A stretch of DNA of 64,000 nucleotides from a virus. The position numbers and the translations under genes are program-made. Below the pieces are notes generated by a model. That model made no database searches. It was not told where the DNA came from and was given only the letters and a program-made list of their open reading frames with translations. Shown here piece by piece: positions 25,177-64,000 of the stretch. The stretch is from UHGV virus genome UHGV-0209617. One strand, given 5' to 3'. Numbering within the stretch: position 1 is the stretch's first letter; each line of letters starts with the position of its first letter.

Positions 25177-25188
25177 AGCATAAAAAAT

Positions 25189-25214
25189 GGAGAGACGAAA
25201 TAAATCGTCTCTCC
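25189..25214. terminator. Hairpin after polymerase gene (possible terminator)
   Basis: GGAGAGACG, 8 nt loop, CGTCTCTCC (9 bp stem); A-run upstream but no clear T-run downstream. Confidence 0.35.
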
Positions 25215-25563
25215 TGAAAGTCCAATCGGTTTGAGCATCTGTGAGAGGCTTGATTGGTTCTGTCAAATCCCAAAATGCAAGGAGAGCCGGATTTCTCTGA
25301 CTCTCTCAAGTATGTATCCTTGAATACATACCCCAATTAGTGTCCATATTATACAGCTTCCGTTCGAAATATGCAAGACCTAAATGAAATTTTTCAAGGC
25401 AGACATTCGTGCTGATAAATCCGGATGAATGACGATTGCTGCTACTGCGGGATTGACGGATATTTTATAGTCATCTGTGATTTTCTCAAATTCTCGAATG
25501 AAGGCCTTTATTTCGGTTTTGGCATATGTAGCAATTTTAAGAGCAAAAAAAGATTAAAAATAC

Positions 25564-25608
25564 GGTTCTTAAAACGCAGGGTTTTGTCCTTTCACTATCA
25601 GAGGGCAA
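25564..25608 (+). promoter_or_regulatory. Conserved bipartite element, copy 2
   Basis: GGTTCTTAAAAC, 9 nt, TGTCCTTTCACTATCAGAGGGCAA, about 30 bp upstream of the Rha-like gene. Confidence 0.4.
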
Positions 25609-25638
25609 GACCCTACTTTTATGAAAGGCGGTATTTTT

Positions 25639-26304
25639 ATGAAAGAATTGATACCCAAAGACGAATACGGCATCTTTGCCGATGCACATGACACCGCAAG
25701 AGTAGACAGCTTGTTTGTAGCGGAGTTTTTTGAGAAGAACCATAAAGAGGTGCTGCGAGATATCCGCAAAATCACTGACCCCACATCCGGGTTAAGTGAA
25801 GAATTCCGACAGCGCAATTTTGCGCCGTCCTCATACACCAACAACCAGAATAAAAAGCAGCCGTGCTACTGCATGACTCGTGATGGATTCACAATGTTGG
25901 CAATGGGATATACCGGGCAAAAGGCAATGAAGTTCAAAGAACTGTACATTCACAGATTTAATGAGATGGATGCTTTTATTAAGAACCTGGTATCTGCAAG
26001 ACAGGAGTTTCCTCTTCTGACTGAAAATATCAAACTGCTCCATGACAAGCCGAAGCCTTACCACTTCAGCAATGAGTGCGATATGTTAAACCGCATCGTG
26101 CTTGGTATGACGGCAAAGCAGTTCAGACTTGCCAATAACATCGAAAAAGGCAAAAGTATCAGACCGTATCTGACCAAAGAACAAATTGAGATGCTGGAAA
26201 TCCTGCAGAAAGTTGATGTGGGTCTGCTCGTAGCATTCCCTGCTTACGAAGACAGAAAACGCCATCTTGAATGGTACAAAACCAAATTAGAGGAGGACAA
26301 ATAA
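25639..26304 (+). CDS. Rha family phage regulatory protein
   Basis: VDSLFVAEFFEKNHKEVLRDIRKI and CYCMTRDGFTMLAMGYTGQKAMKFKELYIHRFNEM resemble the Rha N-terminal domain. Confidence 0.65.
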   Translation: MKELIPKDEYGIFADAHDTARVDSLFVAEFFEKNHKEVLRDIRKITDPTSGLSEEFRQRNFAPSSYTNNQNKKQPCYCMTRDGFTMLAMGYTGQKAMKFKELYIHRFNEMDAFIKNLVSARQEFPLLTENIKLLHDKPKPYHFSNECDMLNRIVLGMTAKQFRLANNIEKGKSIRPYLTKEQIEMLEILQKVDVGLLVAFPAYEDRKRHLEWYKTKLEEDK

Positions 26305-26306
26305 AG

Positions 26307-26531
26307 ATGTTTTATGTGAAAGAACAGCTGAATGATGCGATGGAGGTTTCCATTGAAATTAACGATGAGAATGTATTCTGCCGCTGCCCGTCCTGCGGGT
26401 CTGAGGTACAGGTTGACCTGGCAAAGGTATTTTCCGATGGTGACGGTGATCTGTTTGGCACATCGGTACTTTGCGACAGCTGCAGCAGAAAAATGATGGG
26501 AGGAAAGCCTTGTGGGAGTGAACAGGTATAA
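26307..26531 (+). CDS. Small zinc-ribbon protein
   Basis: ATG 26307 with GAGGAGGA upstream; two CxxC pairs (CRCPSCG, CDSCS). Confidence 0.45.
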   Translation: MFYVKEQLNDAMEVSIEINDENVFCRCPSCGSEVQVDLAKVFSDGDGDLFGTSVLCDSCSRKMMGGKPCGSEQV

Positions 26532-26943
26532 CAGCGAGGGTTATCCTGCTCCGACCACCTATGTGGCACTCACTTCCATCGAAAAAGAAACGAAAGCGGC
26601 AAGAGCGTACAGACCGATTGTGTATGTATGCTCTCCGTTTTCCGGAGATATTGCCGGGAACATTGCAAATGCACGAAAGTACAGTCGATTTGCTGTAGAG
26701 CAGGGGTATATCCCCATTGCTCCGCATTTGCTGTTTCCGCAGTTTCTTAATGATAACGATTTAAGGTCACGTGAGCTGGGGCTTCATTTTGGAAATGTGC
26801 TGATGAGCCATTGCAGCGAGGTTTGGGTGTTCGGAGAAATTGTATCAGCCGGAATGGATGCTGAAATCAGGAGAGCCAAAAGAAAAAATTACAGGCTGCG
26901 CTACTTTGGCAGTGATTTGAAGGAGGTTACAGAAAATGCGTGA
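26512..26943 (+). CDS. DUF4406-like protein (nucleoside 2-deoxyribosyltransferase-like fold)
   Basis: GTG start after GGGAGGAAAG; pattern VYVCSPFSGD..IAPHLLFP..HCSEVWVFGE..AGMDAEIRRAK matches the family as remembered. Confidence 0.4.
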   Translation: MGVNRYNSEGYPAPTTYVALTSIEKETKAARAYRPIVYVCSPFSGDIAGNIANARKYSRFAVEQGYIPIAPHLLFPQFLNDNDLRSRELGLHFGNVLMSHCSEVWVFGEIVSAGMDAEIRRAKRKNYRLRYFGSDLKEVTENA

Positions 26944-29266: not shown

Positions 29267-29487
29267 TTCTATCCTCTTGTGTTTCCAGCAGAAGTTGTGA
29301 ACCGTAAAAAAGCCATTAAAACAGGCACTTCCAAGCACCAACTGACACAAGTATCACAAGAATTTCTATATTAAATGAAATCTATTATATAGAGAATATC
29401 GTAAGCGTGTATACGCACATACACACGTATAGGATTTTTCCGAAACTGTTGTGTCAGTTGTGTCTTGTGAATTTTAGGAGGAATGGA

Positions 29488-29772
29488 ATGCGAGAAAAAA
29501 CGATTGAACAGAAACTTGTAACGGCAGTAAAAAAGCATGGCGGGATTTGTCCGAAGTTTGTATCTCCCGGCTTCGATGGAATGCCAGACCGTTTATTGCT
29601 TTTACCACATGGCAGGTTTGCCTTTGTGGAAGTCAAAGCACCGGGAGAAAAACCAAGACCACTGCAATTGGCAAGACACCGACTCCTTCACCGTTTGGGA
29701 CTTATGGTATATGTCCTGGACAGCGAAGGACAGATTGGGGGGATAATAGATGAAATTATCAATTCAATGTGA
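29488..29772 (+). CDS. VRR-NUC domain nuclease
   Basis: ATG 29488 with GGAGG upstream; GMPDRLLLLPHGRFAFVEVKAPGEKPRPLQ matches the VRR-NUC pattern. Confidence 0.55.
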   Translation: MREKTIEQKLVTAVKKHGGICPKFVSPGFDGMPDRLLLLPHGRFAFVEVKAPGEKPRPLQLARHRLLHRLGLMVYVLDSEGQIGGIIDEIINSM

Positions 29773-30259
29773 TTGGTGCGGGAAAGAATTTGTAAGAGAT
29801 TCTTCCAAATTGAAAGGTAAAAAGCATCACTTTTGTTGCAGACAGTGTCTTGCCGATTTTAGCAATAAGGCAAAGAATCCTAGTGGGTATGCCTCCTTGA
29901 AGGACTTTACAAATATCAGCAAAAATATGACACAGATTAATGAGCGTATGAATCCAAGCAGGATGATGAAGAAAACGAGAAAAAAACTGAGAGAGGCTCA
30001 TCTTGGAAAAGGAGAATGCACTGGGTATTCAAAAATCTACAGTAGGCTTGCACATCGTGTAATTGCAGAGAAAATGTTAGGCAGACCACTTAAACCAGAG
30101 GAAGTAGTGCATCACAGGGATGGAAACAGGTATAACAATATTCCAGAAAACTTGGTCGTGTTCCCTTCGGTTAGTGAGCATTCAAGATTTCATAACGAGT
30201 TTAGATGGTTTCTGCGAGAGTTGGAGAGATTGGAGATGGAGAATGTTGAAACGAAGTGA
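29750..30259 (+). CDS. HNH endonuclease
   Basis: N-terminal zinc-binding CDWCG..CCRQC; HNH core VVHHRDGNRYNNIPENLVVFPSVSEHSRFH. Confidence 0.7.
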   Translation: MKLSIQCDWCGKEFVRDSSKLKGKKHHFCCRQCLADFSNKAKNPSGYASLKDFTNISKNMTQINERMNPSRMMKKTRKKLREAHLGKGECTGYSKIYSRLAHRVIAEKMLGRPLKPEEVVHHRDGNRYNNIPENLVVFPSVSEHSRFHNEFRWFLRELERLEMENVETK

Positions 30260-31625
30260 CCTGCATTATTATCAATCATATTGTGTGGAATACATTAAGC
30301 AAAATCACACTGCTGCAGTTTTATTGGATTGTGGATTAGGAAAAACTTCAATAACTTTGACGGCTCTTGCCGATTTGCTGTTTGACAGCTTCGAGATTCA
30401 TAAGGTTTTGGTTATCGCACCTCTTCGAGTGGCTTCTGTAACATGGAGCGCGGAGATTGAAAAATGGGAGCATTTGAAAATTCTAAAGTATTCCGTGGCA
30501 GTGGGTACCGAAGCAGAAAGGCTGGCGGCACTGAATGCACAGGCAGATATTTATATCATAAACCGAGAAAACGTGCAGTGGCTGATTGAGAAAAGTGGTA
30601 TTCCCTTTGATTTTGATATGCTTGTTGTCGATGAACTGTCAAGTTTCAAGAACCACCAGTCCAAGCGATTCAAGGCACTGATGAAGGTAAGACCAAAAGT
30701 AAAAAGAGCCGTGGGTCTGACAGGTACTCCTTTCAGCAACGGTTTAATGGATTTATTCGCAGAATTTAAACTGCTGGATATGGGAGCAAGGCTTGGCAGA
30801 TTTATCGGTCAATACCGAAATGCCTACTTCTCCCCGGATAAGCGAAACGGTCAGATTATTTACAGTTATAAGCCACTGCCGGATGCTGAACAGCAGATTT
30901 ATGAGAAAATCTCCGATATTACGATTTCCATGAAATCCACGGACCATTTGAAAATGCCGGAGCTGATCAACACGCAGTATGAAGTGGTGCTTTCCAACAA
31001 GGAGCAGGAAAAGTACGAGGAGCTTAAAAAGGATCTGGTGCTGCAGCTTCCAAACGGAGAAATCACAGCCGCCAATGCTGCAAGTCTTACCGGAAAACTG
31101 TCACAGATGGCAAATGGTGCGGTGTATGGGGATGATGAGAAAGTTCTGGAGATACACGAAAAGAAGCTGGATGCTTTGGAGGATATCATTGAAGCCGCAA
31201 ATGGGAAACCGATACTGGTGGCATATTGGTTTAAGCACGATTTGGAACGCATCTGCAGACGGCTGGAGGAACTGAAGGTGGAGTATGCCAGAATATCTTC
31301 TCCCGGCAGTATCGAAATGTGGAACAGAGGTGAGTTTGCAGTAGGTCTTATCCATCCCGCATCAGCTGGTCACGGCTTGAATTTGCAGGCTGGAGGAAGT
31401 ACACTGATATGGTATGGCTTAACCTGGAGCCTTGAACTTTACCAGCAGACCAATGCGAGGCTCTATCGCCAGGGACAGAAGGATACGGTGGTCATTCAGC
31501 ACATCGTGGCTGAAGGCACCATTGATGAAAGAGTCCTTGCTGCTCTTGAAGCAAAGGATAAAACACAGTCAGCACTCATGGATGCCGTGAAAGCTGAACT
31601 TGGAGGTGATGGCTGTGTCGGATAA
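30243..31625 (+). CDS. SNF2/DEAD-like helicase
   Basis: ATG 30243 after GGAGATGGAGA; motif I LDCGLGKTSITL; motif II MLVVDELSSFKN; helicase C-terminal motifs. Confidence 0.8.
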   Translation: MLKRSDLHYYQSYCVEYIKQNHTAAVLLDCGLGKTSITLTALADLLFDSFEIHKVLVIAPLRVASVTWSAEIEKWEHLKILKYSVAVGTEAERLAALNAQADIYIINRENVQWLIEKSGIPFDFDMLVVDELSSFKNHQSKRFKALMKVRPKVKRAVGLTGTPFSNGLMDLFAEFKLLDMGARLGRFIGQYRNAYFSPDKRNGQIIYSYKPLPDAEQQIYEKISDITISMKSTDHLKMPELINTQYEVVLSNKEQEKYEELKKDLVLQLPNGEITAANAASLTGKLSQMANGAVYGDDEKVLEIHEKKLDALEDIIEAANGKPILVAYWFKHDLERICRRLEELKVEYARISSPGSIEMWNRGEFAVGLIHPASAGHGLNLQAGGSTLIWYGLTWSLELYQQTNARLYRQGQKDTVVIQHIVAEGTIDERVLAALEAKDKTQSALMDAVKAELGGDGCVG

Positions 31626-31839
31626 AGGTATAGAAAATCTCCGTAATGCTATCATCCTTCAGGCAGTAAATGATTTGAAGAGAGCGTACAGAAACCTAAA
31701 GAGGAATCCAGACAGCGTACAGCTGAAGGCTGCTGCAGAATACGAGGAGAGGTTCTTCAGTTCCAAATGGTACAAGACCCTTACCACGATTGATGGCAGT
31801 ATGGTGGTAGCCCATGTAAGAGAGGAGGCAGGCTTATGA
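31609..31839 (+). CDS. Hypothetical small protein
   Basis: Tightly packed between helicase and the next gene; no motif. Confidence 0.3.
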   Translation: MAVSDKGIENLRNAIILQAVNDLKRAYRNLKRNPDSVQLKAAAEYEERFFSSKWYKTLTTIDGSMVVAHVREEAGL

Positions 31840-32279
31840 CAGCAAAAGAATACTTGAGTCAGGCATTCCTGCTGAACGAACAGATAAACACAAAGCTTGA
31901 GCAGGTCAGTGCCTTGAGGCATCTTGCCACAAAGACCTGCACACCTATAAACGATATGCCGGGTTCTCCAACAAAGCGTGTTGATGGAATGGAGGAAACC
32001 ATAATCAAGATGGTTACCTTAGAGAATGAAATCAATGCAGACATCGATAAGCTGGTGGATTTGAAGGTTGAAATAACACGGCTCATCAACAAGGTGAGCA
32101 AGGTTGAATGCAGACTGCTCCTGGAGAAAAGATATCTCTGCATGGAAGCATGGGAGGTTATAGCAGCGGGGCTTAATTACAACCTGAGGTATATCCACAA
32201 ACTGCACAGCAAAGCATTATCTTCTTTTGATGAAGTCATGGCAGAATATAAAGTAGACACCAAAGGGCACTATTTGTGA
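31836..32279 (+). CDS. Putative phage late transcriptional activator (ArpU/DUF1492-like, sigma region 4-like)
   Basis: 147 aa; C-terminal RYLCMEAWEVIAAGLNYNLRYIHKLHSKAL is HTH-like; position just upstream of the packaging genes. Confidence 0.45.
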   Translation: MTAKEYLSQAFLLNEQINTKLEQVSALRHLATKTCTPINDMPGSPTKRVDGMEETIIKMVTLENEINADIDKLVDLKVEITRLINKVSKVECRLLLEKRYLCMEAWEVIAAGLNYNLRYIHKLHSKALSSFDEVMAEYKVDTKGHYL

Positions 32280-32382
32280 CTGCCAAACTATAGTATAATG
32301 TAAACTGTGAAAAGAATATAATCATAGAGCCATTGGAGAGCAATCTTCGATGGCTTTTCTTATGCCCGAAAGAGGTGAAGCC

Positions 32383-32754
32383 ATGCCAAGGAAACCAAAG
32401 CGTCCCTGCAGATACAGCGGATGCCCGAAGCTGACAGAAGGATACTATTGCGATGAACATCAGAAGCTAATGGACAGGCAGTACGATAAATACCGCCGCC
32501 CGGCTGAAGCCAAGAAAAGGTATGGCTATCAGTGGAGAAAGATAAGAGCTGCGGTACTGGCAAGAGAGCCGTTCTGTCTGGAGTGCCGAAAGGCTGGAAG
32601 AATAACCAAGGCCACAGAGGTGCATCATGCTGTGCCATTAGACCACGGCGGTACCAACGAGGATAGTAATTTGATACCGCTCTGCAAGCCGTGTCACTCC
32701 CGCATAACTGTGGAGATGGGGGATAGATGGCATAAGAAAAAGCTGCCCATATGA
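32383..32754 (+). CDS. HNH endonuclease (packaging-associated)
   Basis: ATG 32383 with AGAGGTGA upstream; HNH core EVHHAVPLDHGGTNEDSNLIPLCKPCHSRI. Confidence 0.7.
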   Translation: MPRKPKRPCRYSGCPKLTEGYYCDEHQKLMDRQYDKYRRPAEAKKRYGYQWRKIRAAVLAREPFCLECRKAGRITKATEVHHAVPLDHGGTNEDSNLIPLCKPCHSRITVEMGDRWHKKKLPI

Positions 32755-32835: not shown

Positions 32836-33117
32836 TTAAGCATCACCTAATACCTCGTTGCGTAATTCCTTGAATGAAGAATAACGTTTATACTTTTCCG
32901 GATTAGCTTTCATTGTATAGTATTCATTCATGGCATCGAGTGTTTCCGGATTAGGTACTGAACGCTTGATGTCGAAGGGAATGCGCTGTTCACGAACAGC
33001 CTGCCGAAGGAATATTGTGACAGCTGTAGTCAAATCCATACCAAGGTCTGAAAAAAGACTTTGTGCATTGAGCTTCAACTGAGGGTCTAATGCTATGTTT
33101 GTACTTACTTTAGCCAT
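32836..33117 (-). CDS. RelB/DinJ family antitoxin-like protein (orphan)
   Basis: ATG at 33117 with TAGGAGGTG upstream; MAKVSTNIALDPQLKLNAQSLFSDLGMDLTTAVTIFLRQAVREQRIPF is the RelB/DinJ ribbon-helix-helix signature; no toxin ORF in the 80 bp downstream. Confidence 0.65.
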   Translation of the reverse strand: MAKVSTNIALDPQLKLNAQSLFSDLGMDLTTAVTIFLRQAVREQRIPFDIKRSVPNPETLDAMNEYYTMKANPEKYKRYSSFKELRNEVLGDA

Positions 33118-33861: not shown

Positions 33862-33906
33862 TATGCTAGTGCAGAATTGTACTGGCTATTTTTTATGGAG
33901 GCAGCA

Positions 33907-35184
33907 ATGGCGAATACAGAACGATTTGAAAAAGTACATATAGACAAGCTGGTGCCCTATGCCAGAAATGCCAGGACACACAGCAAGGAGCAGGTCATGG
34001 AACTGAGAGCGTCCTTAAGGGAGTTCGGATTCGTTACTCCCGTCCTGGTAGATGAAAACTATACAATCCTCGCGGGGCACGGACGTGTCAGGGCTGCAAA
34101 GGAAGAAGGCATTACCGAGGTGCCATGTGTATTTGCGAACCAGCTGACGGATGCACAGAAGAAAGCCTATATCCTAGCAGATAACCGTCTTGCGCTTAAT
34201 GCGGGATGGGATAACGAGATGCTGGCAGTTGAACTGGCTGATCTGCAGGGCGAGGCTTTTGATATCGGCCTTTTGGGATTTGATGACAAGGAGCTGGAGA
34301 AGCTCCTTGGCAATAACGATGAGGCAGAGGATGATGATTTCGATGTTGATGCCGAACTTCAAAAACCATGCTTCAGCCGCCCAGGAGATATCTGGAAACT
34401 CGGCAGGCACAAGGTTATCTGTGGTGACAGCACTGACCCGAATGTTTACACTTCTCTTCTTGGAGATGTGAAAGTAAACCTAGTCTGCACTGACCCGCCG
34501 TATTTTGTAGCCTTCGAGAATAAATCAGGGAAAATCCAGAATGACAATCTGGGTGATGAGGAAGGATATAAATTCCTCAAATCCGCTATGGATAATTTCC
34601 ATAATGCTATGGCAAAGGATGCCAGCATTTATGTGTTTTATGCTACATCCAAAGCCAGGGTATTCCATGATGCTTTTGAGGATGCAGGGTTTAAGGTTGG
34701 AGCAGGACTTGTCTGGAAGAAGGATCGCCTGGTGCTGACCCGCACGGATTGGAAGTACATCCATGAGCCAATTATCTTCGGCTGGCGTAAGGACGGAAAG
34801 CATATCTGGTACGGAGATCAGAAGCAGACTACTGTATTTGAGTTTTCCCGTATCAAGGATTCTGGCAAGGATGGATACGGTCATCCTACCAGCAAGCCTG
34901 TACCTCTCATTGCTTATCTCATTAAGCAGTGCACCCAGACTAACGGTATTGTGCTGGATGGCTTCTTGGGTTCTGCCAGCACCCTTATTGCCTGTGAGCA
35001 GCTTGAAAGAAACTGTTATGGCGTAGAGCTTGAGCCGAAGTTCGTGGATGTGGCTGTAAACAGATACATCGCAGCCCATGATGGCTCCGCCCAGGATGTT
35101 GTCCTTATCCGAGATGGAAAAGAATACAGCTACGAAGAGTCCCAAGCGATGATGGAGGATAGTGCTGAAAATGACGAACAATAA
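33907..35184 (+). CDS. ParB-like nuclease domain fused to DNA methyltransferase (beta class, N4/N6)
   Basis: ATG 33907 with GGAGG upstream; ParB-like N-terminus ILAGHGRVRAAKEEG; methyltransferase motifs CTDPPY and GHPTSKP. Confidence 0.8.
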   Translation: MANTERFEKVHIDKLVPYARNARTHSKEQVMELRASLREFGFVTPVLVDENYTILAGHGRVRAAKEEGITEVPCVFANQLTDAQKKAYILADNRLALNAGWDNEMLAVELADLQGEAFDIGLLGFDDKELEKLLGNNDEAEDDDFDVDAELQKPCFSRPGDIWKLGRHKVICGDSTDPNVYTSLLGDVKVNLVCTDPPYFVAFENKSGKIQNDNLGDEEGYKFLKSAMDNFHNAMAKDASIYVFYATSKARVFHDAFEDAGFKVGAGLVWKKDRLVLTRTDWKYIHEPIIFGWRKDGKHIWYGDQKQTTVFEFSRIKDSGKDGYGHPTSKPVPLIAYLIKQCTQTNGIVLDGFLGSASTLIACEQLERNCYGVELEPKFVDVAVNRYIAAHDGSAQDVVLIRDGKEYSYEESQAMMEDSAENDEQ

Positions 35185-36632: not shown

Positions 36633-36661
36633 TTGATAATAATACAGATGTACGGTAATAT
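36633..36661 (+). promoter_or_regulatory. Consensus-like sigma-A promoter, copy 1 of a duplicated ~48 bp element
   Basis: -35 TTGATA, 17 nt spacer, -10 TAATAT, then ACACACAAC(A/G)AAAGGG; near-identical copy at 38201-38229. Confidence 0.5.
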
Positions 36662-36710
36662 ACACACAACAAAAGGGAACACCCCACCAAGAGAAAGCGA
36701 GGAAAACAAA

Positions 36711-37598
36711 ATGGATTTAAGAGCACAGACCTTCGGAGTAGAGATTGAGATGACCGGCCTTACAAGAAACAGGGCCGCAAAGGTAATCGCCGCATACTTC
36801 GGAACGGAGGCAACCTACTTCGGAGGCGGATACGATGAGCACCACGCAAAGGACAGCAAGGGCAGAATCTGGAAGGCCATGAGCGATTCAAGCATCAGGG
36901 CAGAAAAGAAGGACGGCTCCTACGCAAGCGACCTTTACAAGACCGAGGTGGTAACCCCAATCCTCAGATACGAGGACATTGAAGACCTACAGGAAATCCT
37001 GAGAAAGCTCAGAAAGGCAGGGGCGATGGTAAACAGCAGCACAGGGATTCACATCCACATCGGAGCGGAGAATTTCACCCCGGCTACCCTTTGCAACCTT
37101 CTGAAGAACATCCGAAGCAAGGAGGACATTCTTTACAGAGCCATTCAGGTCAAGGAAAACCGCGCAAGGTACTGCAGAAAAACAAACCAGAAGCTCATCG
37201 AGATGATTGAGGCACACCGCCCCAAGACAAAGGAGCAGCTTGCAGACCTTTGGTATGCAGAAGCACCATACGGAAGAAACAGGCATTACAACGACAGCAG
37301 ATACCACGGACTTAACCTCCACGCATACTTCACTAAGGGAACGGTCGAGTTCAGGCTTTTCAACAGCACCCTCCACGCAGGCGAATTGAAAGCCTACATA
37401 CAGTTCTGCATGGCGGTTACAGCAAAGGCCATAAACACCAAGAAGGCAAGCGCGAAGCCAAGCATCAGCGACAACGAAAAATACACTTTCAGATGCTGGC
37501 TCCTCCGCCTGGGCCTTAACGGAGAAGAATTCAAGACCTGCAGAACCCACCTTTTGAAGCACCTCGAAGGAAACAGCGCCTGGAGGCACCTTTCCTAA
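36711..37598 (+). CDS. Amidoligase (Amidoligase_2 / glutamine synthetase-like)
   Basis: 295 aa from ATG 36711; motifs FGVEIEMTG, GIHIHIG, VEFRLFNSTLH. Confidence 0.6.
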   Translation: MDLRAQTFGVEIEMTGLTRNRAAKVIAAYFGTEATYFGGGYDEHHAKDSKGRIWKAMSDSSIRAEKKDGSYASDLYKTEVVTPILRYEDIEDLQEILRKLRKAGAMVNSSTGIHIHIGAENFTPATLCNLLKNIRSKEDILYRAIQVKENRARYCRKTNQKLIEMIEAHRPKTKEQLADLWYAEAPYGRNRHYNDSRYHGLNLHAYFTKGTVEFRLFNSTLHAGELKAYIQFCMAVTAKAINTKKASAKPSISDNEKYTFRCWLLRLGLNGEEFKTCRTHLLKHLEGNSAWRHLS

Positions 37599-37610
37599 AA
37601 CAAACCGGCC

Positions 37611-37643
37611 TACCAGCCCCGAAAGGGGCCTTTCGGTGGTAGA
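37611..37643 (+). other. GC-rich hairpin element after amidoligase gene
   Basis: CTACCAGCCCCGAAAGGGGCCTTTCGGTGGTAG; related element at 38467-38506; no U-tract. Confidence 0.35.
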
Positions 37644-37695
37644 AGCACCTAGCTTCTGAATAAACCGATTTGCTTTAGGAAGGGAGTCTTCAACA

Positions 37696-38154
37696 ATGAA
37701 AAGAAAAATCTATCTGGCCTACGGAAGCAACATGAGCCTTTTGCAGATGTACCACCGTTGCCCTGATGCAGAACCGATTGGCAAGGGCATCATCAAGGAT
37801 TACCGCCTGATGTTTAAGGGAAGTAAGAGTGGCAACTATGCGACCATCGAATACGAGGAAGGACGGCAGGTGCCTGTGGTAGCCTGGGCAATCAGTGAAA
37901 GGGATGAAAAATGCCTTGACCGCTATGAAGGATTTCCGAGCTTTTATGTGAAGGACACCATCGCATTTGAATATATCGGTGATCGCCCAGGAAGAAGGAT
38001 GAAGGATGAGGGCATGGTTTATGTGATGCCGCCAGATGAGACTGTTCTGGGGCTTCCAAGTGGTCACTACATGGATGTCCTTCTTGAAGGCTACCATCGC
38101 TTCGGATTTAATTCCAGAATCCTTTGGGAAGCCTACGAATACAGCGATGAGTGA
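37696..38154 (+). CDS. Gamma-glutamyl cyclotransferase-like protein (GGCT/AIG2 fold)
   Basis: N-terminal IYLAYGSNMSLLQM (YGSNM signature); 152 aa; directly follows the amidoligase. Confidence 0.6.
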   Translation: MKRKIYLAYGSNMSLLQMYHRCPDAEPIGKGIIKDYRLMFKGSKSGNYATIEYEEGRQVPVVAWAISERDEKCLDRYEGFPSFYVKDTIAFEYIGDRPGRRMKDEGMVYVMPPDETVLGLPSGHYMDVLLEGYHRFGFNSRILWEAYEYSDE

Positions 38155-40227: not shown

Positions 40228-40287
40228 ATTATAGGTTGAATATATCCTAGAGATGGTATATAATAGCCATGAAAGGAGATGATACCT

Positions 40288-40530
40288 ATGATGGTTGATA
40301 CTAATAATCTTGTTTCAATAACTGAGGCAAACCAGAATTTTTCAAAGGTCGCTCGTATGGTAGATGAGTCAGGTTCTGTTGTAATCCTAAAAAATAATGT
40401 ACCTAAATATTTAGTAGTTAATTTTGATGTGGCTGATAGCGTGGATTATACTTCAGATGAAGAGCTGCTCATGGTATCAGATAAATTTATGAAGAAAAAT
40501 AAAAAGGCGTATGAGGTATTGGCAAAATGA
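40288..40530 (+). CDS. phd: Phd/YefM family antitoxin
   Basis: ATG 40288 with AAAGGAG 9 nt upstream; VSITEANQNFSKVARMVDESGSVVILKNNVPKYLVV; stop overlaps the doc start (ATGA). Confidence 0.7.
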   Translation: MMVDTNNLVSITEANQNFSKVARMVDESGSVVILKNNVPKYLVVNFDVADSVDYTSDEELLMVSDKFMKKNKKAYEVLAK

Positions 40531-40901
40531 AGCGAATATCTAAACGTCAGGTATTATTGCTGCATAATAAGCTGATAGAGGAAAGTGGCGGCTCTGATGG
40601 TATCAGGGAAGATGGACTCTTGGAATCAGCTTTGAATGCGCCTTACCATGAGTTTGCAGGTTTTTCAAACTATCCCACGATAGAAGAAAAAGCTGCCAGG
40701 CTCGGTTATGGTATAATCAAGAACCATCCATTTGTTGATGGGAATAAAAGAATTGGTACCCATATTATGCTTCTGCTTTTGTATATCAATGGTGTTGAGT
40801 TGGTATATGAACAGGAGGAGCTGATAGACATAATTCTACAAGTTGCATCAGGACAAGCTGATTATGAAGAGTTATATGCTTGGGTTTTAGATCATGAATA
40901 A
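40527..40901 (+). CDS. doc: Doc (death-on-curing) toxin, Fic family
   Basis: Fic/Doc active-site motif HPFVDGNKRIG; 124 aa; coupled to upstream phd. Confidence 0.8.
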   Translation: MKRISKRQVLLLHNKLIEESGGSDGIREDGLLESALNAPYHEFAGFSNYPTIEEKAARLGYGIIKNHPFVDGNKRIGTHIMLLLLYINGVELVYEQEELIDIILQVASGQADYEELYAWVLDHE

Positions 40902-58259: not shown

Positions 58260-58414
58260 AGATTTACAAGTACAAGGCAAAGGCCTACGCAGTGCTGGTA
58301 AAGGCAGGAAGGTACATACTGTCTGAAGATCAGAGGGAGAACAAGAAGCAGGAGCTTGTACCAGAGGAGTATGCAGATCTTGTGGCAGAGATTCTTCTTG
58401 GAGGCGATAGCTGA
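58256..58414 (+). CDS. XkdX-like small phage protein (52 aa, not in ORF track)
   Basis: ATG 58256 overlaps the preceding stop; MKIYKYKAKAYAVLVKAGRYILSEDQRENKKQELVPEEYADLVAEILLGGDS; stop at 58412-58414 overlaps the next start. Confidence 0.4.
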   Translation: MKIYKYKAKAYAVLVKAGRYILSEDQRENKKQELVPEEYADLVAEILLGGDS

Positions 58415-58782
58415 TGGATGAGAGGGATGTAGTCATGCTTTACATCCAGGTTGGTGGTGCGTTACTTGTCAGTGCCATCACAGGCGTAATGGGTGCTCTG
58501 GTACGTGAGGTATGGGCGCTTAGAAAGGAACGACAGGAAAAAGCCATAGAGGAAGAAGCTGAACGGGGAAAACGCAGAAAGGCATTAAAGGCACTCTTGA
58601 AGTTTCAGCTTCATCGCTCCTGGCAGTATCACACCAGCAATGGCTTCATGCCAGCCAACGAGATGAGCCTTCAGACAGAGCTGTATGAGGCTTATCACGA
58701 TATGGGAGGTAACGGCACCGGGACAAAGCTCTATAACGAGATGATGGAGCTGCCACATATCAAGCACACGGAGGTAAAGTAA
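58414..58782 (+). CDS. Hypothetical membrane protein (one predicted transmembrane helix), lysis-module associated
   Basis: Hydrophobic N-terminus LYIQVGGALLVSAITGVMGALV; precedes the holin. Confidence 0.35.
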   Translation: MDERDVVMLYIQVGGALLVSAITGVMGALVREVWALRKERQEKAIEEEAERGKRRKALKALLKFQLHRSWQYHTSNGFMPANEMSLQTELYEAYHDMGGNGTGTKLYNEMMELPHIKHTEVK

Positions 58783-59087
58783 TGAAGAACTTAATAGTAC
58801 AGTTTTCTGCATGGGCGCAGGCCAACTGGCTTGCGCTTGTTATTTTTATGATTTTTTCCATGATGGCATTCCTGTGCATGGTCATGGGAAGCTGGCTTTA
58901 TGGCTACTGGTCAAATGCTCTCTGCGGCACGAAGTTTGAACTTGGTAGCTGCTGGCAGGGAATCACTGTTGTTATCACGGGCCTTGGCGGTGTTGCAGCA
59001 CTGGCCAAGGCTGCATGGACCAAGTATTCAACGGACAGCCAGTATAACAGCATGATGGGGAGTCATCCATACGAAAGGGGTAAGTGA
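58782..59087 (+). CDS. Holin (putative)
   Basis: 101 aa with 2-3 hydrophobic helices; immediately upstream of and overlapping the endolysin start. Confidence 0.5.
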   Translation: MKNLIVQFSAWAQANWLALVIFMIFSMMAFLCMVMGSWLYGYWSNALCGTKFELGSCWQGITVVITGLGGVAALAKAAWTKYSTDSQYNSMMGSHPYERGK

Positions 59088-59659
59088 TTATGATTAAGGG
59101 TATTGATGTATCGGAGAACAACGGCACTGTAGATTGGCAGGCAGTAAAGAATGCCGGGATTGAGTTTGCTATTGTAAGAAGCTCCTATGGTAAGACGGGA
59201 GTGGATGAGAAGTTCCTGGAAAATGTAAATGGTGCTCATGCAGTGGGGCTGAAGGTTGGTGCTTACCATTATGGCTATGGCCTGACTCCGGCTGATGCAG
59301 TGCTTGAAGCAAGGAACTGCCGTGAGGTAATTGATGAGGCAGGAGTGCTTCTGGAGCTTCCTGTTTTCTATGACATGGAAGATGCTGATGGCTATAAAGA
59401 AAGACACGGATTTTGGTTTGACCCAGAGAATGCCACAGGTATCTGCAGGGCATTCCTGGATAACATTGGCCTGAACTGTGGTGTATACGCATCATACAGC
59501 TGGCTTTGTGATTTGATTGACTGGCGCAGTCTCGGCTGCTCAGTCTGGAACGCAGAATGGGGAGGTAGCGATGATATTGAAGGATATATGTGGCAGTTTA
59601 CGGAAAAGCTTTATATCTCTGGTAAGCAGTTTGATGGAAACTATCTCTACAACTGGTAA
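59084..59659 (+). CDS. Endolysin, glycoside hydrolase family 25 muramidase
   Basis: N-terminal KGIDVSENNGTVDWQAVKNAGIEFAIVRSSYGKTGVDEKF and GAYHYG match the GH25 pattern. Confidence 0.8.
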   Translation: MIMIKGIDVSENNGTVDWQAVKNAGIEFAIVRSSYGKTGVDEKFLENVNGAHAVGLKVGAYHYGYGLTPADAVLEARNCREVIDEAGVLLELPVFYDMEDADGYKERHGFWFDPENATGICRAFLDNIGLNCGVYASYSWLCDLIDWRSLGCSVWNAEWGGSDDIEGYMWQFTEKLYISGKQFDGNYLYNW

Positions 59660-60140: not shown

Positions 60141-60285
60141 CAGTTATTGGTCATATACATAACGAGTAGCAAACGGCGCTAATAAACGTGCGTATATAAA
60201 TTATAAAATAAGCACGAATGTTAAAATTATCTTTACAACTGTGCTTATTTAATTTATAATATAAGCACGGTTGGAGGTGATTGCC

Positions 60286-60867
60286 ATGAATGACATTGAA
60301 AAGCTTGTTGATGAGTCAGGAATGATTACAACTAGAGATATAGTGAAAAATAATCAGTCAAAAGTAGAATTTTACAATTACCTGAGAAAAAATGATTTTG
60401 AACAAGTATCGCGTGGTATATATGCTTCTAAGGATGCGTGGGTAGACCCATTATTGATTGCGCATATGAGATGTCCTAAAGCGGTGATCTCTCATGATGT
60501 GGCACTTCATTATTATGGCTTGGTTGATAGAGAGCCTTCAGCTCCAACGCTTACTATTTATTCTGGATACAACACAAGCAGGTTAAAAGAAGCAGGGTAC
60601 AAGGTGTTTTTCGTGAAGAAGGAATACCTTGATGCTGGCAAAGAAGAGGTTGTAAATTTTGATGGCAACATCATTCCTATGTATAACCTTGAAAGAACGA
60701 TGTGTGACCTTGTCAGAAACAGAAGCAGCTTTGAGATTCAAGATTTCAATGCAGCTATAAAAGCGTATGCCAGAAAAAAGGAAAAGAATCTTACAAGGCT
60801 ATTTGAATATGCGAAAATGCTTAGGGTGGAAAAATTGATGCGGTCATATATGGAGGTGCTTTTGTAA
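60286..60867 (+). CDS. abiEi: AbiEi-like antitoxin/transcriptional regulator
   Basis: ATG 60286 with GGAGGTGA 5 nt upstream; ~190 aa directly upstream of a nucleotidyltransferase-fold toxin gene; called from size, position and fold resemblance. Confidence 0.65.
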   Translation: MNDIEKLVDESGMITTRDIVKNNQSKVEFYNYLRKNDFEQVSRGIYASKDAWVDPLLIAHMRCPKAVISHDVALHYYGLVDREPSAPTLTIYSGYNTSRLKEAGYKVFFVKKEYLDAGKEEVVNFDGNIIPMYNLERTMCDLVRNRSSFEIQDFNAAIKAYARKKEKNLTRLFEYAKMLRVEKLMRSYMEVLL

Positions 60868-61721
60868 TGATCTTATCAGCTGCACAGGCAAGAGGCAGGA
60901 TTAAGAATATTGTGGCAAAAAATGGTGCGGACCCAAGACTGCTTATGAGAATTTATATGATGGAGAGATTTTTGGAACGAGTATCCCTTTCTGCATACAA
61001 GGATAATTTCATCATTAAGGGCGGAATGCTTATAACATCATTGGTTGGTATTTCCATGCGGTCAACTATGGATATTGACACAACTGTAAAAGGCCAGGAT
61101 GTAAGCATGGAAAATGCACAGCGTATTGTTAAAGAAATTGCTGACATTCAGATTGATGATGGGGTTTCTTTTGTGATTAAAGATGTAGAAAACATAATGG
61201 ATGAGATGGAATATCCAGGAATCAAATTTCACTTGGAAGTGTTATTAGACAAAATGGTTACGCCAATAAAGATTGATGTTTCTACGGGCGATGCAATTAC
61301 ACCCAGAGCGATTGAATATAATTACAAGCTTATGCTTGAAGATAGAGAAATCGGGCTGTGGAGCTATAATCTGGAAACAATCCTTGGGGAAAAATTACAG
61401 ACGATACTTGTACGTGAACGTGCAAACACCAGAATGAGAGATTTCTATGATATATGTGTATTGGTAGAAATGTATGACAGTAAGATAAATACTGTCAATT
61501 TCAAAGCAGCATATGAGGCGACCTGTAGAAAAAGAGGGTCATTACACTTATTTGGTAATGAAGGAAAAATACTGGATATAATAGCTGGTGAAAGTAAAAT
61601 GATTGATAGATGGACAAATTATCAGAAGAAGTTTTCTTATGCATCTGATATCAGTTTTGAGAAAGCTATTCAGTGTGCAAAGGGGTTAATTTCATTCTTG
61701 AAAAATAGTACCGGAAAATAA
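60867..61721 (+). CDS. abiEii: AbiEii-like nucleotidyltransferase toxin
   Basis: 284 aa; resembles AbiEii/AbiGii as remembered; start overlaps the AbiEi stop. Confidence 0.7.
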   Translation: MILSAAQARGRIKNIVAKNGADPRLLMRIYMMERFLERVSLSAYKDNFIIKGGMLITSLVGISMRSTMDIDTTVKGQDVSMENAQRIVKEIADIQIDDGVSFVIKDVENIMDEMEYPGIKFHLEVLLDKMVTPIKIDVSTGDAITPRAIEYNYKLMLEDREIGLWSYNLETILGEKLQTILVRERANTRMRDFYDICVLVEMYDSKINTVNFKAAYEATCRKRGSLHLFGNEGKILDIIAGESKMIDRWTNYQKKFSYASDISFEKAIQCAKGLISFLKNSTGK

Positions 61722-61754: not shown

Positions 61755-61793
61755 CCCTATGTGGAACTTGAGGTTCTGCATAGGGTATTTTTT
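61755..61793 (+). terminator. Intrinsic terminator after AbiEii
   Basis: CCCTATG..CATAGGG hairpin followed by TATTTTTT. Confidence 0.55.
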
Positions 61794-61949: not shown

Positions 61950-62327
61950 ATGACAGAAGTAGAGAAGAAAAGAATAAAGGAGCTTCATTATCAGGGGCTG
62001 GGATATCGGAAGATTGCTGCCGAACTTGGCATGTCCCCTAATACTGTGAAATATGTAACCAAGAATCTGGTAGCTACGGATAATCATACCTGCAGGAACT
62101 GCGGCATCAAAGTTTTACAGACAGCAGGACGCAAGGAGAAGAAGTTCTGTTCAGATAAATGCCGTATGGATTGGTGGAACAGCCATCTCGATACTGTTAA
62201 TCGCAAGGGATATAAGACCTTTACCTGTAAATGCTGCAGTAAGGAATTCATGGCTTATGCCAGGACAGGCAGGAAATACTGCAGCCGGGAATGTTATTTC
62301 AAGGCTAGATATGGAGGTGCAAGATGA
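61950..62327 (+). CDS. HTH (sigma region 4-like) plus Cys-rich zinc-finger regulator of recombination module
   Basis: N-terminal KRIKELHYQGLGYRKIAAELGMSPNTVKY; C-terminal cysteine pairs CRNCG, CSDKC, CKCC, CSREC. Confidence 0.5.
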   Translation: MTEVEKKRIKELHYQGLGYRKIAAELGMSPNTVKYVTKNLVATDNHTCRNCGIKVLQTAGRKEKKFCSDKCRMDWWNSHLDTVNRKGYKTFTCKCCSKEFMAYARTGRKYCSRECYFKARYGGAR

Positions 62328-62515
62328 GTACGCCGTTGAATGAAAAGTACACACTTAGTATAAAGGAATCCGCCAAGTATTTCGGTATTGGCATGAAAAG
62401 GCTGCGGCGGCTTGCAGAAGAACATATGGACACCTTTGCTATCCGCTGTGGCAACAAGTATCTCATCATCCGCACTGAGTTTGAAGCCTTTCTGAAGGAT
62501 TCAGAAGAAATATAG
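62324..62515 (+). CDS. xis: Excisionase-like HTH protein
   Basis: 63 aa; LSIKESAKYFGIGMKRLRRLAEE is a MerR/Xis-type HTH; directly upstream of the integrase. Confidence 0.5.
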   Translation: MSTPLNEKYTLSIKESAKYFGIGMKRLRRLAEEHMDTFAIRCGNKYLIIRTEFEAFLKDSEEI

Positions 62516-62583
62516 CTTATATGCCAAATAGTAGTTGAATAATATCGCAAACAGAGTGATATATAGTGTCGGAGGTGATGAGC

Positions 62584-62808
62584 ATGCAGAAATCAGATCT
62601 TGGGGAACGGGAATACCTTAGCAAGAAGTATACTGCCGTCTTCTTCGGACTCAGTCCCAGGCGGCTTGAGCGATTCCTCAAAGCAGATGACTATGATTTT
62701 GTTGTGTATTATAAGAAAAGAACACTGATATTAAGGGAGGCCTTCAACAGATATCTCTGGAGGAATCCTGATGTAAGGGAGATGTTGAAACGTGGCAAGA
62801 CGAGGTGA
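62584..62808 (+). CDS. Second excisionase-like HTH protein
   Basis: ATG 62584 with GGAGG 8 nt upstream; YTAVFFGLSPRRLERFLK; 3' end overlaps the integrase start. Confidence 0.45.
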   Translation: MQKSDLGEREYLSKKYTAVFFGLSPRRLERFLKADDYDFVVYYKKRTLILREAFNRYLWRNPDVREMLKRGKTR

Positions 62809-64000
62809 AGTAAGAAGGGATTCAAGGAACAGGCTGTTAAGGATAGGTGAATCCCAGCGTAAAGATGGCAAGTACATGTTCAAATACCATGTGGATGGCA
62901 GACCGTATTTCGTCACCAGCTGGAGACTGCTGCCTTCAGATAGGCAGCCAAAAGGTACAAAGCCTACCCTTTCACTGAGGGAATTGGAAAAGAAGGTAGG
63001 AAGGGAAATCGACCTGCAGATGAGCCTTGAACTCAGGAACTGCACGGTTAAGGATTTGGTTGAGCGGTATTTGGCTACCAGGATTAATGCAAAGCCGAAT
63101 ACCAAGATGGGGTATAATACTGTAAAGAATGTACTGGAAAGTGAGCCCTTTTATCATAGGAAGATAAAAACAATCAAGGTATCTGATGCAAAGATATTCC
63201 TCATCAAGTTGCAGGAAAATGGCAGGAAGGCCAGCACGGTGAAATGCATCAGAGGGGTTCTCCGCCCGGCTTTTCAGATGGCTGTAGATGATGATATGCT
63301 GGTCAAGAATCCTTTTGCTTTCGAGCTGGCAGGTGTCCTGGTAAATGACTCAGTCACAAGGGAGGCTGTCAGCAGGAGGGAAATGAAAAAGTTCTTGCAG
63401 TTTGTCAGGAACGATGATTGCTACTGCAAATACTATGAGGCAGTACATATACTGTTCCATACGGGAATGCGAATATCTGAATTCTGCGGTCTGACGATAA
63501 ATGACCTTGATATGGAGAACAGAATCATAGATATAAACCATCAGCTGGTGCGTGTGGGAATGAAGCTGATAATACAGACCACAAAGACCAACGCAGGCAC
63601 CAGAAGGATTCCGATGTCTGAGGATGTATATGAAATGTTCAAGAGCATATTGGCTAACAGGCCAACAGGCATAGATGAGAAAGCCGTTGATGGGTATAAG
63701 GGGTTCCTCTACCTTGATAATGCCGGACTGCCACTTGTGGCAATGCACTGGTCAAACAGGTTCAGGCATATGGTCGGGCGCTACAATGACATTTACAAAG
63801 AACAGATGCCTAAAATCACTCCTCACGTCTGCCGCCATACCTACTGCAGCAACATGGCAAAATCGGGAATGCATCCAAAGATCCTGCAGTACCTTATGGG
63901 GCATTCGGACATTGGTGTGACGCTCAATACATATACCCACTTAGGGCTTGAGGACGCCCAGGGCGAGATGGACAGACTGAAGGATGCCCAACAGGAGATT
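62792..64000 (+). CDS. int: Tyrosine recombinase/integrase, Tn916-family-like (3' end beyond window)
   Basis: Open frame from GTG 62792 to the window edge; N-terminus RRDSRNRLLRIGESQRKDGKYMFKY resembles Tn916 Int as recalled; catalytic region HVCRHTY and LMGHSDIGVTLNTYTHL. Confidence 0.8.
   Translation, partial: MARRGEVRRDSRNRLLRIGESQRKDGKYMFKYHVDGRPYFVTSWRLLPSDRQPKGTKPTLSLRELEKKVGREIDLQMSLELRNCTVKDLVERYLATRINAKPNTKMGYNTVKNVLESEPFYHRKIKTIKVSDAKIFLIKLQENGRKASTVKCIRGVLRPAFQMAVDDDMLVKNPFAFELAGVLVNDSVTREAVSRREMKKFLQFVRNDDCYCKYYEAVHILFHTGMRISEFCGLTINDLDMENRIIDINHQLVRVGMKLIIQTTKTNAGTRRIPMSEDVYEMFKSILANRPTGIDEKAVDGYKGFLYLDNAGLPLVAMHWSNRFRHMVGRYNDIYKEQMPKITPHVCRHTYCSNMAKSGMHPKILQYLMGHSDIGVTLNTYTHLGLEDAQGEMDRLKDAQQEI

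Follow-up and report, generated by a model that had tools for sequence, protein, structure and literature searches.

A Tn916-related excisionase and integrase module at the right end of a Ca. Heliusvirales-type prophage

The window analysed here is a 64,000-nucleotide stretch of virus genome UHGV-0209617. The sequence to its right was taken from an identical metagenome contig, and positions beyond 64000 are given as extended coordinates. The right end of the window holds a block of four genes with terminator-like hairpins on both sides, which we call the recombination module:

61755-61785, + strand: terminator-like hairpin between the AbiE genes and the module, a 14-pair stem followed by a T-run (L001 9806-9836)
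61950-62327, + strand: HTH and double zinc-knuckle protein of 125 aa that opens the module (HTH_38, E 2.5e-7)
62324-62515, + strand: Tn916-type excisionase (recombination directionality factor) of 63 aa (PF09035, Tn916-Xis, E 9e-13; phrog_16129)
62584-62808, + strand: second Xis-like protein of 74 aa with a basic tail, a paralogue of the 63-aa Xis
62792-64000, + strand, truncated by the window end: tyrosine integrase of 421 aa (PF02920, E 1e-23; PF00589, E 2e-31)
64066-64094, extended coordinates: terminator 3' of int, found by terminator scan

The original prediction had described an HTH/zinc-finger regulator, two excisionase-like genes and an outward-reading integrase with a Tn916-like N-terminus, and all of these are present here on the + strand. 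They form the final gene block of the prophage and read outward toward attR. The int stop codon is at extended coordinate 64057, 57 nt past the window end, and the int start is overlapped by 17 nt by the ORF of the 74-aa protein. All ORFs of the module are intact and its GC content is 45%, the same as that of the phage.

The 125-aa protein contains two C-x2-C...[FY]CSxxC zinc knuckles and is matched over its full length by the phage family phrog_2308 (E 8e-37). In an AlphaFold model of this protein (pLDDT 86.5) the N-terminal three-helix HTH overlays LuxR/GerE-type domains, and a PDB fold search gave zero matches to the whole fold. As to function, PDB profile and fold searches returned generic matches (LuxR/GerE-type HTH and a weak FCS zinc-finger) and an NCBIfam search of the module genes added nothing further. 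The regulator had been thought to be of Tn916 type. This did not hold up, because neither the HTH/zinc protein nor the sigma-like early protein listed below shows similarity to orf7, orf8 or orf9 of Tn916. The 74-aa ORF had zero matches in a Pfam search and aligns without gaps to the 63-aa Xis (28% identical, E 2e-7). It constitutes a separate orthologue group found directly 5' of int in related phages.

The module is co-oriented with the other genes at the right end of a 54,411-bp element, one siphovirus-like prophage in which int is the last gene. Its remaining features are:

10277-10286, strand not applicable: attL core TGCCACGGCA (10 bp), direct repeat
10287-10560, + strand: non-coding region after the core and ahead of the cargo genes, the putative left (P) arm of the attachment site
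10623-18378, + strand: low-GC (35%) cargo, identified by Pfam and composition, with a DUF6273 protein, a Phd-like antitoxin and a LlaJI-type restriction-modification system
18417-19601, - strand: zinc-finger protein of 394 aa (weak zf-CGNR match), divergent from the early genes
20036-20545, + strand: sigma-70/ECF-like protein with region 4, the first early gene (Sigma70_r4_2, E 2e-6)
21145-32754, + strand: replication module (PHROG and Pfam matches)
33310-58029, + strand: packaging, head and siphovirus tail genes (PHROG and Pfam matches)
58414-59659, + strand: lysis genes, membrane proteins and a GH25 endolysin (Glyco_hydro_25, E 9e-23)
60271-60867, + strand: AbiEi-like antitoxin (PF13338, AbiEi_4, weak match below cutoff, E 0.002)
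60867-61721, + strand: AbiEii nucleotidyltransferase (PF08843, E 3e-37)
64688-64697, extended coordinates: attR core TGCCACGGCA, direct repeat, 688 nt past the window end

The LlaJI-type system is made up of two methyltransferases, an AAA_5 McrB-like protein and RE_LlaJI. DUF6273 paralogues occur in other samples. The first early protein scored 41.6 bits against the NCBIfam sigma70-ECF model, slightly below the cutoff. The replication genes encode a PD-(D/E)XK exonuclease, a Gp2.5-like ssDNA-binding protein, DNA polymerase A, a Rha-like regulator, a VapE primase-helicase, VRR-NUC, an SNF2 helicase and HNH. They are followed by small and large terminase, portal, ClpP protease, HK97-type capsid, tape measure and GpJ-like tip genes, with ParB-methylase, amidoligase and Phd/Fic morons among them. 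AbiE genes had been predicted before the module and are there as a type IV toxin-antitoxin arrangement, with AbiEii preceded by an AbiEi-like gene whose own match is weak. They form a low-GC moron that separates the lysis genes from the recombination module and is absent from this junction in related phages.

Consistent with the original prediction, in which no CI-like repressor was seen, there was no Cro/CI-type HTH_3 protein among the precomputed Pfam matches for the called genes of the prophage. A search of the minus-strand ORFs and the small early ORFs for a CI-like repressor yielded a RelB antitoxin and unannotated proteins only. The 394-aa zinc-finger protein is a candidate lysogeny regulator. 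It has homologues at the same position and orientation in NatCom_3357, NatCom_43819 and Streptococcus phage phi1207.3, and the last of these is annotated as 'DNA binding zinc finger domain protein'.

Exactly two copies of TGCCACGGCA are present in 72 kb and these bracket the 54,411-bp element. Insertion was into the opening codons of a gene for a low-molecular-weight phosphatase (LMWPc), where the core falls on the Cys-His-Gly codons of the CX5R catalytic loop. Insertion leaves the phosphatase gene intact, since the phage brings in a replacement promoter region together with codons 1-11 of the gene. As an empty site we used the uninterrupted gene in Anaerovibrio genome L024, which is from a related species and another strain. 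The left flank of attL is 97% identical to this site and the right flank of attR is 84-88% identical, and the LMWPc protein is 95% identical between the host contig and the related Anaerovibrio genome. The host is probably Anaerovibrio, a gut member of the Selenomonadaceae (Negativicutes). In another sample the sequence to the left of the attL core differs and that to the right is identical, with the divergence exactly at the core. Of 80 genomes representing one species each, 14 have an Int homologue immediately 5' of LMWPc. A decayed relative is found 8 kb to the left.

The original prediction had also raised the possibility of conjugation genes to the right of the window. What follows int is the terminator, approximately 600 nt of non-coding DNA, and then housekeeping genes (LMWPc, DUF896, an HMGL-like gene, an aminotransferase, UvrD and CorA), and this chromosomal DNA is collinear with the related genome that has no element. 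Neither the called genes of the complete element nor those of the 8 kb rightward of it include a relaxase, coupling protein (FtsK-like) or VirB4-like domain, and no tRNA or Rfam family was found adjoining int. A prophage start at the GC jump near 20000 was considered and rejected in favour of 10277. A search for long direct repeats between the region after int and approximately 19600-20036 returned zero, and the real attL is 9.7 kb further left. A contig of 54,307 bp was rejected as a circular phage genome since it holds the host phosphatase gene and breaks within the DUF6273 gene; a 54,435-bp contig, by extrapolation, maps likewise.

To place the integrase, we compared it with structures and with other recombinases. 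The identity to Tn916 is 41% for Int and 47% for Xis. The best PDB match of Int is Tn1549 Int (6EMY, E 8e-78), to which residues 85-396 align with one gap of a single residue across the hairpin region; the RISE, HxxR, GHS and Y motifs are conserved. Residues 6-68 align to the structure of the Tn916 Int N-terminal domain (1B69, E 2e-15), and PF02920 is the arm-binding domain of Tn916 Int. Smyshlyaev et al. (2021, PMC8138268) define the IntTn916 subgroup by a beta-hairpin inserted into the catalytic domain and by an N-terminal arm-binding domain made up of three strands and one helix. Judged from alignment to the structures, our Int appears to have the arm-binding N-domain, the beta-hairpin region and the catalytic residues of this subgroup, which is already known to include many phage integrases alongside those of ICEs (PMC8138268; bioRxiv 10.1101/2023.11.06.565760). 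In a neighbor-joining tree of 21 sequences, one of them partial (Poisson distances, 300 bootstraps), the phage integrases form a clade with 100% support that joins Tn916/Tn1549 at 99%. Ordinary phage integrases such as those of T12, L54a, L5 and lambda fall outside, as does that of Javan563, and those of T12, L54a and L5 are 17-22% identical to this Int. On sequence grounds, the phage clade is sister to the Tn916/Tn1549 integrases, and the enzyme is a phage-borne sister of the integrases of conjugative transposons.

The resemblance to Tn916 and Tn1549 extends to the three-domain architecture of Int, to the order of xis and then int reading outward at the element end, and to paired TTTAC-type direct repeats adjoining int. 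By contrast, the phage element has no conjugation genes and no homologues of orf7, orf8 or orf9, and it adds a second Xis paralogue and the HTH/zinc protein. Its behaviour is also not that of a Tn916-like recombinase. Tn916 and Tn1549 insert at AT-rich sites with no strict specificity (PMC5871717, PMC8138268), whereas the phage inserts at one conserved GC-rich 10-bp core that lies inside a gene and is identical at both ends; this integrase is site-specific, not promiscuous. T12, mv4, L5 and L54a likewise use heterobivalent tyrosine recombinases of the IntTn916 subgroup and are temperate phages of Gram-positive bacteria. However, T12 and L5 have int on the strand opposite to its neighbours at one phage end, and T12 has a CI-like repressor near its int, whereas int here is co-oriented and last.

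We then looked at the non-coding arms next to the cores. The positionally conserved feature is a pair of direct repeats with 11-bp spacing, 164-176 bp from the core, at -175/-164 in this phage and -176/-165 in two relatives. Tn916 has ATTTACTACT / TATTTACCACT directly 3' of int, and other members of the clade have co-varying ATTTAC-N-AC pairs. The motif in this phage, two copies of CGTCTACTAT, deviates from the consensus ATTTACTAC. A search for partner repeats in the left arm gave no clear ones. The motif AACGGTT is enriched in the arms, with 3 of its 8 copies in 72 kb located in the two arms. We rejected the TTCACCCC hairpin repeats as arm sites because they occur in this phage only and lie upstream of the conserved pair; they are treated as an unexplained insertion. 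A left-arm hairpin at approximately 10470-10497 was rejected as a terminator by the terminator scan.

The prediction of a siphovirus-like prophage was borne out by the siphovirus tail genes, and the element also has marker genes of Ca. Heliusvirales. Using the marker list from PMC11283538 with PHROG and Pfam models rather than the authors' HMMs, we found all nine marker functions (phrog_69, phrog_112, phrog_17, VRR-NUC/HNH, phrog_62/256, phrog_9, phrog_12, CLP_protease and phrog_10). TerL has 70-71% nucleotide similarity to several Heliusvirales records. From the nine markers, we regard the prophage as being of the Ca. Heliusvirales type. Within the phage collection, the integrases nearest to this one (61% identity) come from complete genomes of that order. 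NatCom_9291 (PV036421), NatCom_3870 (PV036417) and CHVD 5762 (PV036456) have replication and head markers in common with this phage. Between these phages and ours, Int is 61% identical, Xis 47-61% and the HTH protein 42-44%. These phages resemble it in having the module after the lysis genes and defence cargo adjoining the module. They differ in that nucleotide similarity is low overall with a few genes at 70-78%, the half of our phage from tail to int has no megablast match, and our phage probably has an Anaerovibrio host and carries AbiE and LlaJI cargo.

The original prediction had viewed the module as atypical for a phage. Instead, the same four genes directly follow the lysis genes in two of the complete Heliusvirales genomes examined, a third, CHVD 5762, has Xis, its paralogue and Int with the HTH/zinc gene missing, and the module is also found in many prophages. 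In a Lachnospiraceae isolate the prophage order is holin, endolysin, HTH, Xis, ORF, Int and LMWPc. This is the usual module of a gut-phage group that is already known and widely distributed, and in this respect the finding, though real, is fairly ordinary.

Together, these data make it very likely that the four genes are the integration/excision genes of one temperate siphovirus-like prophage, which measures 54.4 kb, is of the Ca. Heliusvirales type and probably has an Anaerovibrio host. Since the arm repeats resemble those of Tn916 yet the enzyme is site-specific, the flank is housekeeping and the att repeats bracket the whole element, the module belongs to the phage and no separate element adjoins it. 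Two alternatives had been offered, and the one supported is a Tn916-type integrase used by the phage in its own right. Judging by homology to Tn916/Tn1549 and by the heterobivalent tyrosine-recombinase paradigm, Int would bind the arm repeats via its N-terminal arm-binding domain and the core via its CB/CAT domains, and would then recombine attP with attB. The predicted junctions are ...CTTTTCGTATGCCACGGCAGCGTATAAGGATAG... for attP and ...TTGTTTATCTGCCACGGCAATATTTGCCG... for attB. Xis, possibly with its paralogue, would bend the arm and bias the reaction toward excision. The HTH/zinc protein may control expression of the operon or help the intasome; for this protein and the second Xis, we infer the role.

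It is also conceivable, though unlikely, that the prophage is fixed or defective and the module a relic that no longer mediates excision; the anatomy given so far would fit this reading. Neither excised nor circular forms were found, and every contig with this phage has it integrated at the same site. Exact-pattern scans of the IMG/VR and JGI metagenome contigs for the attL/attP junction and for the int terminator returned nothing, and the decayed relative to the left also fits this idea. However, the module ORFs are intact, the catalytic motifs of Int are conserved and the structural and replication genes are full length. The look-ups were also by exact protein identity and therefore returned only near-identical lysogens.

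A second possibility is that the element is a composite, with a 44.7-kb phage (from approximately 20000 to attR) beside an unrelated, unpackaged 9-kb low-GC defence island (10287-19600). We consider this improbable. It is suggested by the sharp GC jump from 35% to 46% near 20000 and by the segment adjoining attL, which varies by sample, with L011 and L012 having other genes to the left of window position 10538. But there is no internal att copy, and the 54-kb length is typical of the complete Heliusvirales records retrieved (approximately 48-80 kb). Related phages also bear defence cargo next to int or attP, for example Pycsar in L107 and, in NatCom_3870, large genes on the reverse strand. In addition, the arrangement of a zinc-finger gene and a LlaJI-like restriction enzyme/McrB-like pair beside the early genes recurs in Heliusvirales (NatCom_43819) and in phi1207.3 (formerly Tn1207.3). 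The likeness to phi1207.3 includes the divergent orientation of the zinc-finger gene and early exonuclease, SSB and DNA polymerase genes; the zinc-finger protein itself is just 28% identical.

Very little probability remains for a small separate integrative (mobilizable) element, AbiE-HTH-xis-int, beside a prophage whose own integrase was lost or never there. The GC content of the AbiE genes (36.5% versus 46%), the hairpin that parts them from the module and a satellite-like small element that carries the same module could be read in its favour. Against it, module and phage have the same GC content, and in complete phage genomes and the isolate prophage the module is directly 3' of endolysin with no AbiE between. 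There is no third exact att core in 72 kb, the nearest copy with one mismatch being at 20567 beside the early genes rather than where lysis genes and module adjoin, and no second integrase or recombinase domain among the called genes of the element. A Tn916-like conjugative element extending to the right of the window, for which the homology of Int and Xis and the outward orientation of the Tn916 pair at one end might have argued, is refuted by the chromosomal genes in the extended sequence and the lack of conjugation domains, and has virtually no likelihood.

For the prophage reading, the annotation is settled as one prophage from 10277 to 688 nt past the window end, with no hidden conjugative element. 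The published description of the Heliusvirales does not have integrases, excisionases or Tn916 in its text. We did not find it stated there that members of this widespread gut phage order carry an Int-Xis pair closely related to that of Tn916/Tn1549, that the clade has the LMW phosphatase gene as a recurrent target, inserting at its 5' end and restoring it, or that defence cargo (AbiE, LlaJI and Pycsar) has hot spots at the junctions flanking the module. For tools that call mobile elements by integrase type, these results are a caution that a Tn916-type Int with Xis is no sure sign of a conjugative element. More tentatively, and with some doubt on our part, this integrase clade of phages and satellites may be, among phage-borne integrases, the closest sister to the promiscuous Tn916/Tn1549 Y-transposases. 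It would have the same arm-repeat architecture yet be strictly specific for a GC-rich core of 10 bp within LMW phosphatase genes, at the codons of the catalytic loop, across Clostridia and Negativicutes. If true, the two would be a natural pair for comparison on the question of how a site-specific phage integrase becomes a promiscuous conjugative transposase, and this may point to the phage lineage that exchanged its xis-int module with Tn916-type elements.

The four genes at the right end of the window are those of the original prediction, which accurately described an HTH/zinc-finger regulator, two excisionase-like genes and an integrase there, after AbiE genes. AbiEi-like and AbiEii genes (Pfam) lie upstream, and the module genes are co-oriented on the + strand within window 61950–64000:

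61950–62327, +, 125-aa HTH/zinc protein (N-terminal HTH_38, E 2.5e-7; full-length match to phrog_2308)
62324–62515, +, 63-aa excisionase (Pfam Tn916-Xis, E 9e-13)
62584–62808, +, 74-aa ORF, a paralogue of Xis (gapless alignment, 28% identity, E 2e-7)
62792 to past the window end, +, integrase (PF02920, Tn916 Int DNA-binding, E 1e-23; PF00589, catalytic, E 2e-31)

A Pfam search with the 74-aa ORF gave no match. The full-length integrase, read from an extending contig, has 421 aa. Because adjacent genes overlap (HTH and xis by 4 nt, the paralogue and int by 17 nt) and terminator-like hairpins lie 3' of AbiEii (61755–61785) and 3' of int, the module looks like one insulated operon; a search for a consensus sigma-70 promoter in front of it found none. 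The HTH/zinc protein has two zinc knuckles (C-x2-C...[FY]CSxxC) that are weakly similar to FCS-type fingers. Its structure model is confident (pLDDT 86.5), with fold likeness limited to a three-helix HTH of the LuxR/GerE type. Some of its homologues match Pfam YacG. The roles of this protein and of the second Xis are putative.

The original prediction also considered that a separate integrative element might abut the prophage, with conjugation genes to the right. A gene for the HTH protein was present on 24 public metagenome contigs. One of these, ENA ERZ28638444 scaffold_39, is 100% identical to the window's last 12,051 nt and then runs further right. There, int is followed by its terminator, then a non-coding stretch of about 600 nt, and then genes for LMWPc (a low-molecular-weight phosphatase), DUF896, an HMGL-like carboxylase subunit, an aminotransferase, UvrD and CorA. 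No conjugation genes were found in this sequence right of int, and therefore the reading as a separate conjugative element fails. The LMWPc protein shares 95% identity with its counterpart in an uncultured Anaerovibrio MAG, which is collinear with the DNA right of the element, and window 10208–10286 matches at 97% the stretch directly upstream of this MAG's LMWPc gene.

Within 72 kb there are just two exact copies of the decamer TGCCACGGCA, one at window 10277–10286 (attL) and one 688 nt beyond the window end (attR), which are 54,411 bp apart. Joining the sequence left of attL to that right of attR yields the uninterrupted LMWPc gene of the related Anaerovibrio genome. This core codes for Cys-His-Gly in the CX5R catalytic loop of LMWPc, and the gene stays whole because the element brings a replacement upstream region and first 11 codons (MSKSILFVCHG instead of MNKILFICHG). 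A contig of the same prophage from another sample (L010 1–260, Logan SRR29133932_36344) has a different LMWPc 5' end (MIKILFICHG) left of the core and is identical on the right, which places the junction exactly at the core. The DNA upstream there looks like a related phage's right arm, which suggests that the site has been occupied in tandem or in succession, with integration perhaps into a site that an earlier element had rebuilt.

Near the core, a direct-repeat pair (two copies of CGTCTACTAT with 11-bp spacing) lies 175 and 164 bp away, and two relatives from other hosts have an equivalent pair at 176 and 165 bp. Other members have ATTTAC-N-AC pairs in which the variable positions change between elements, and Tn916 has ATTTACTACT / TATTTACCACT immediately after int. 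These pairs are putative arm-type Int sites. Between the int terminator and the arm repeat pair are two 130-nt repeats that are 81% identical and 197 nt apart (64136–64262 and 64333–64459 in window numbering carried past its end; 12187–12313 and 12384–12510 of L001, an identical metagenome contig). Both copies contain a TTCACCCC(N8)GGGGTGAA hairpin; comparison with Rfam gave no match, and none of the related loci compared has these repeats.

Nearly all genes of the element share one strand. From attL to attR their order is:

low-GC cargo: DUF6273, a Phd-like antitoxin, and a LlaJI-type restriction-modification system
394-aa zinc-finger gene, divergent (18417–19601, –)
sigma-like early gene
replication: exonuclease, Gp2.5-like SSB, DNA polymerase A, VapE primase-helicase, VRR-NUC, SNF2 helicase, HNH
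packaging and head: terminase, portal, ClpP protease, HK97-type capsid
siphovirus tail and lysis genes
AbiE and the recombination module

The replication and head genes match the nine marker functions of Ca. Heliusvirales as defined in PMC11283538, and the top nucleotide matches of the element are records of this group. We rejected the GC jump near 20000 as an element boundary; the zinc-finger gene and LlaJI-like RE/McrB pair beside early genes recur in Heliusvirales NatCom_43819 and NatCom_3357 and in Streptococcus phage phi1207.3. Domain matches revealed no second recombinase elsewhere in the element, and the annotation of the whole prophage contains no Cro/CI-type protein. The 394-aa protein is conserved, and its gene is the only one divergent from the early operon, the classical repressor position. 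Its C-terminus (C-x2-C...YCCSNCR) has the same knuckle pattern as the module's HTH/zinc protein (C-x2-C...FCSDKCR and ...YCSRECY). We tentatively regard it as a candidate repressor.

Some further genes were also seen. A Phd/Fic (Doc-like) toxin-antitoxin pair lies between the terminase and portal genes (40279–40901), and a lone RelB antitoxin gene (32836–33117, –) is ahead of the small terminase gene. A ParB-N6 methyltransferase fusion (33877–35184) and an amidoligase and GGACT pair (36633–38154) are between the replication and packaging genes.

As a Tn916 reference we used the genuine copy embedded in the Streptococcus phage IPP61 record. Its Int and Xis are 41% and 47% identical to those of the element, and its orf7, orf8 and orf9 show no similarity to the element's HTH/zinc or sigma-like protein. 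The best solved-structure match of the integrase was Tn1549 Int (E 8e-78), nearly gapless and with catalytic motifs retained, followed by the Tn916 Int N-terminal domain (E 2e-15) and XerD (1e-13). Neighbour-joining with 300 bootstraps placed the phage and satellite integrases in one clade (100%) that grouped with Tn916/Tn1549 (99%) and not with the T12, L54a, L5, Javan563 and lambda integrases (17–24% identical), which fell outside. This placement fits the published picture of the IntTn916 subgroup as a mix of ICE and phage integrases in which Tn916/Tn1549 are a special promiscuous cluster (PMC8138268, PMC5871717).

Within the phage collection, the nearest integrases, at 61% identity, come from complete Ca. 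Heliusvirales genomes. NatCom_9291 and NatCom_3870 have all four module genes in the same order after lysis genes; CHVD 5762 lacks the HTH/zinc gene and has the other three. Identities to Heliusvirales counterparts are 42–44% for the HTH protein, 47–61% for Xis and 33–39% for the paralogue. More than 8000 clusters (90% identity) of integrase homologues scored at E ≤ 1e-20, the best 120 being 62–70% identical. Among three homologues sampled for genomic context, a Lachnospiraceae isolate prophage has holin, endolysin, HTH, Xis, an ORF, Int and then LMWPc. A related prophage (L107 2648–5344; L108 2011–4707) has a Pycsar defence system (PycTM and cyclase) between the integrase and the LMWPc att site; defence-cargo slots are on both sides of the module. 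An approximately 11-kb locus (L111 1–11278) with MunI restriction-modification, a DUF3987 primase-like gene, one capsid gene and Xis-Xis-ORF-Int (Int 64% identical) looks like a phage satellite using the same integrase clade. An Int homologue is immediately upstream of LMWPc in 14 of 80 species-representative genomes, with the same core in almost all.

Cargo beside attL is variable, because contigs from other samples (L011 and L012 1–540) carry extra genes left of window 10538, namely a DUF8245/Sel1 protein and a second DUF6273 paralogue. Further left, window 1–324 encodes the C-terminus of a large terminase that shares 84% aa identity with the resident phage TerL, and 1778–2269 is a portal gene cut short at residue 163 (65% identical), with unrelated reverse-strand ORFs between them; together they are what remains of another, related prophage, some 8 kb to the left of attL. 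A zeta-toxin/P-loop kinase-like ORF that appears to be frameshifted (9277–9800) and an 89-aa gene (9864–10133), whose homologue is immediately 3' of a related integrase in IMG/VR contig L021, hint that the DNA left of attL may include relics of an earlier related element. This DNA also encodes a family of small secreted paralogues whose signal peptides are nearly identical (…IFIMIIVLQALFIGVCSANSGRLADIGAEVF…; 3820–4383, 7390–8016, 8118–8690 and also 6577–7254) in a stretch of very low GC (31–34%).

The comparisons establish the element's gene content, its boundaries and target site, the homologies, and the module's conservation among phages. Judged from sequence, the phage owns a Tn916/Tn1549-like xis-int pair that is predicted to be used as an ordinary site-specific lysogeny module. 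The module is presumably active at present; no excised form of the prophage was seen. Because this arrangement is already standard in a known phage order, the finding adds one more member to a kind already known.
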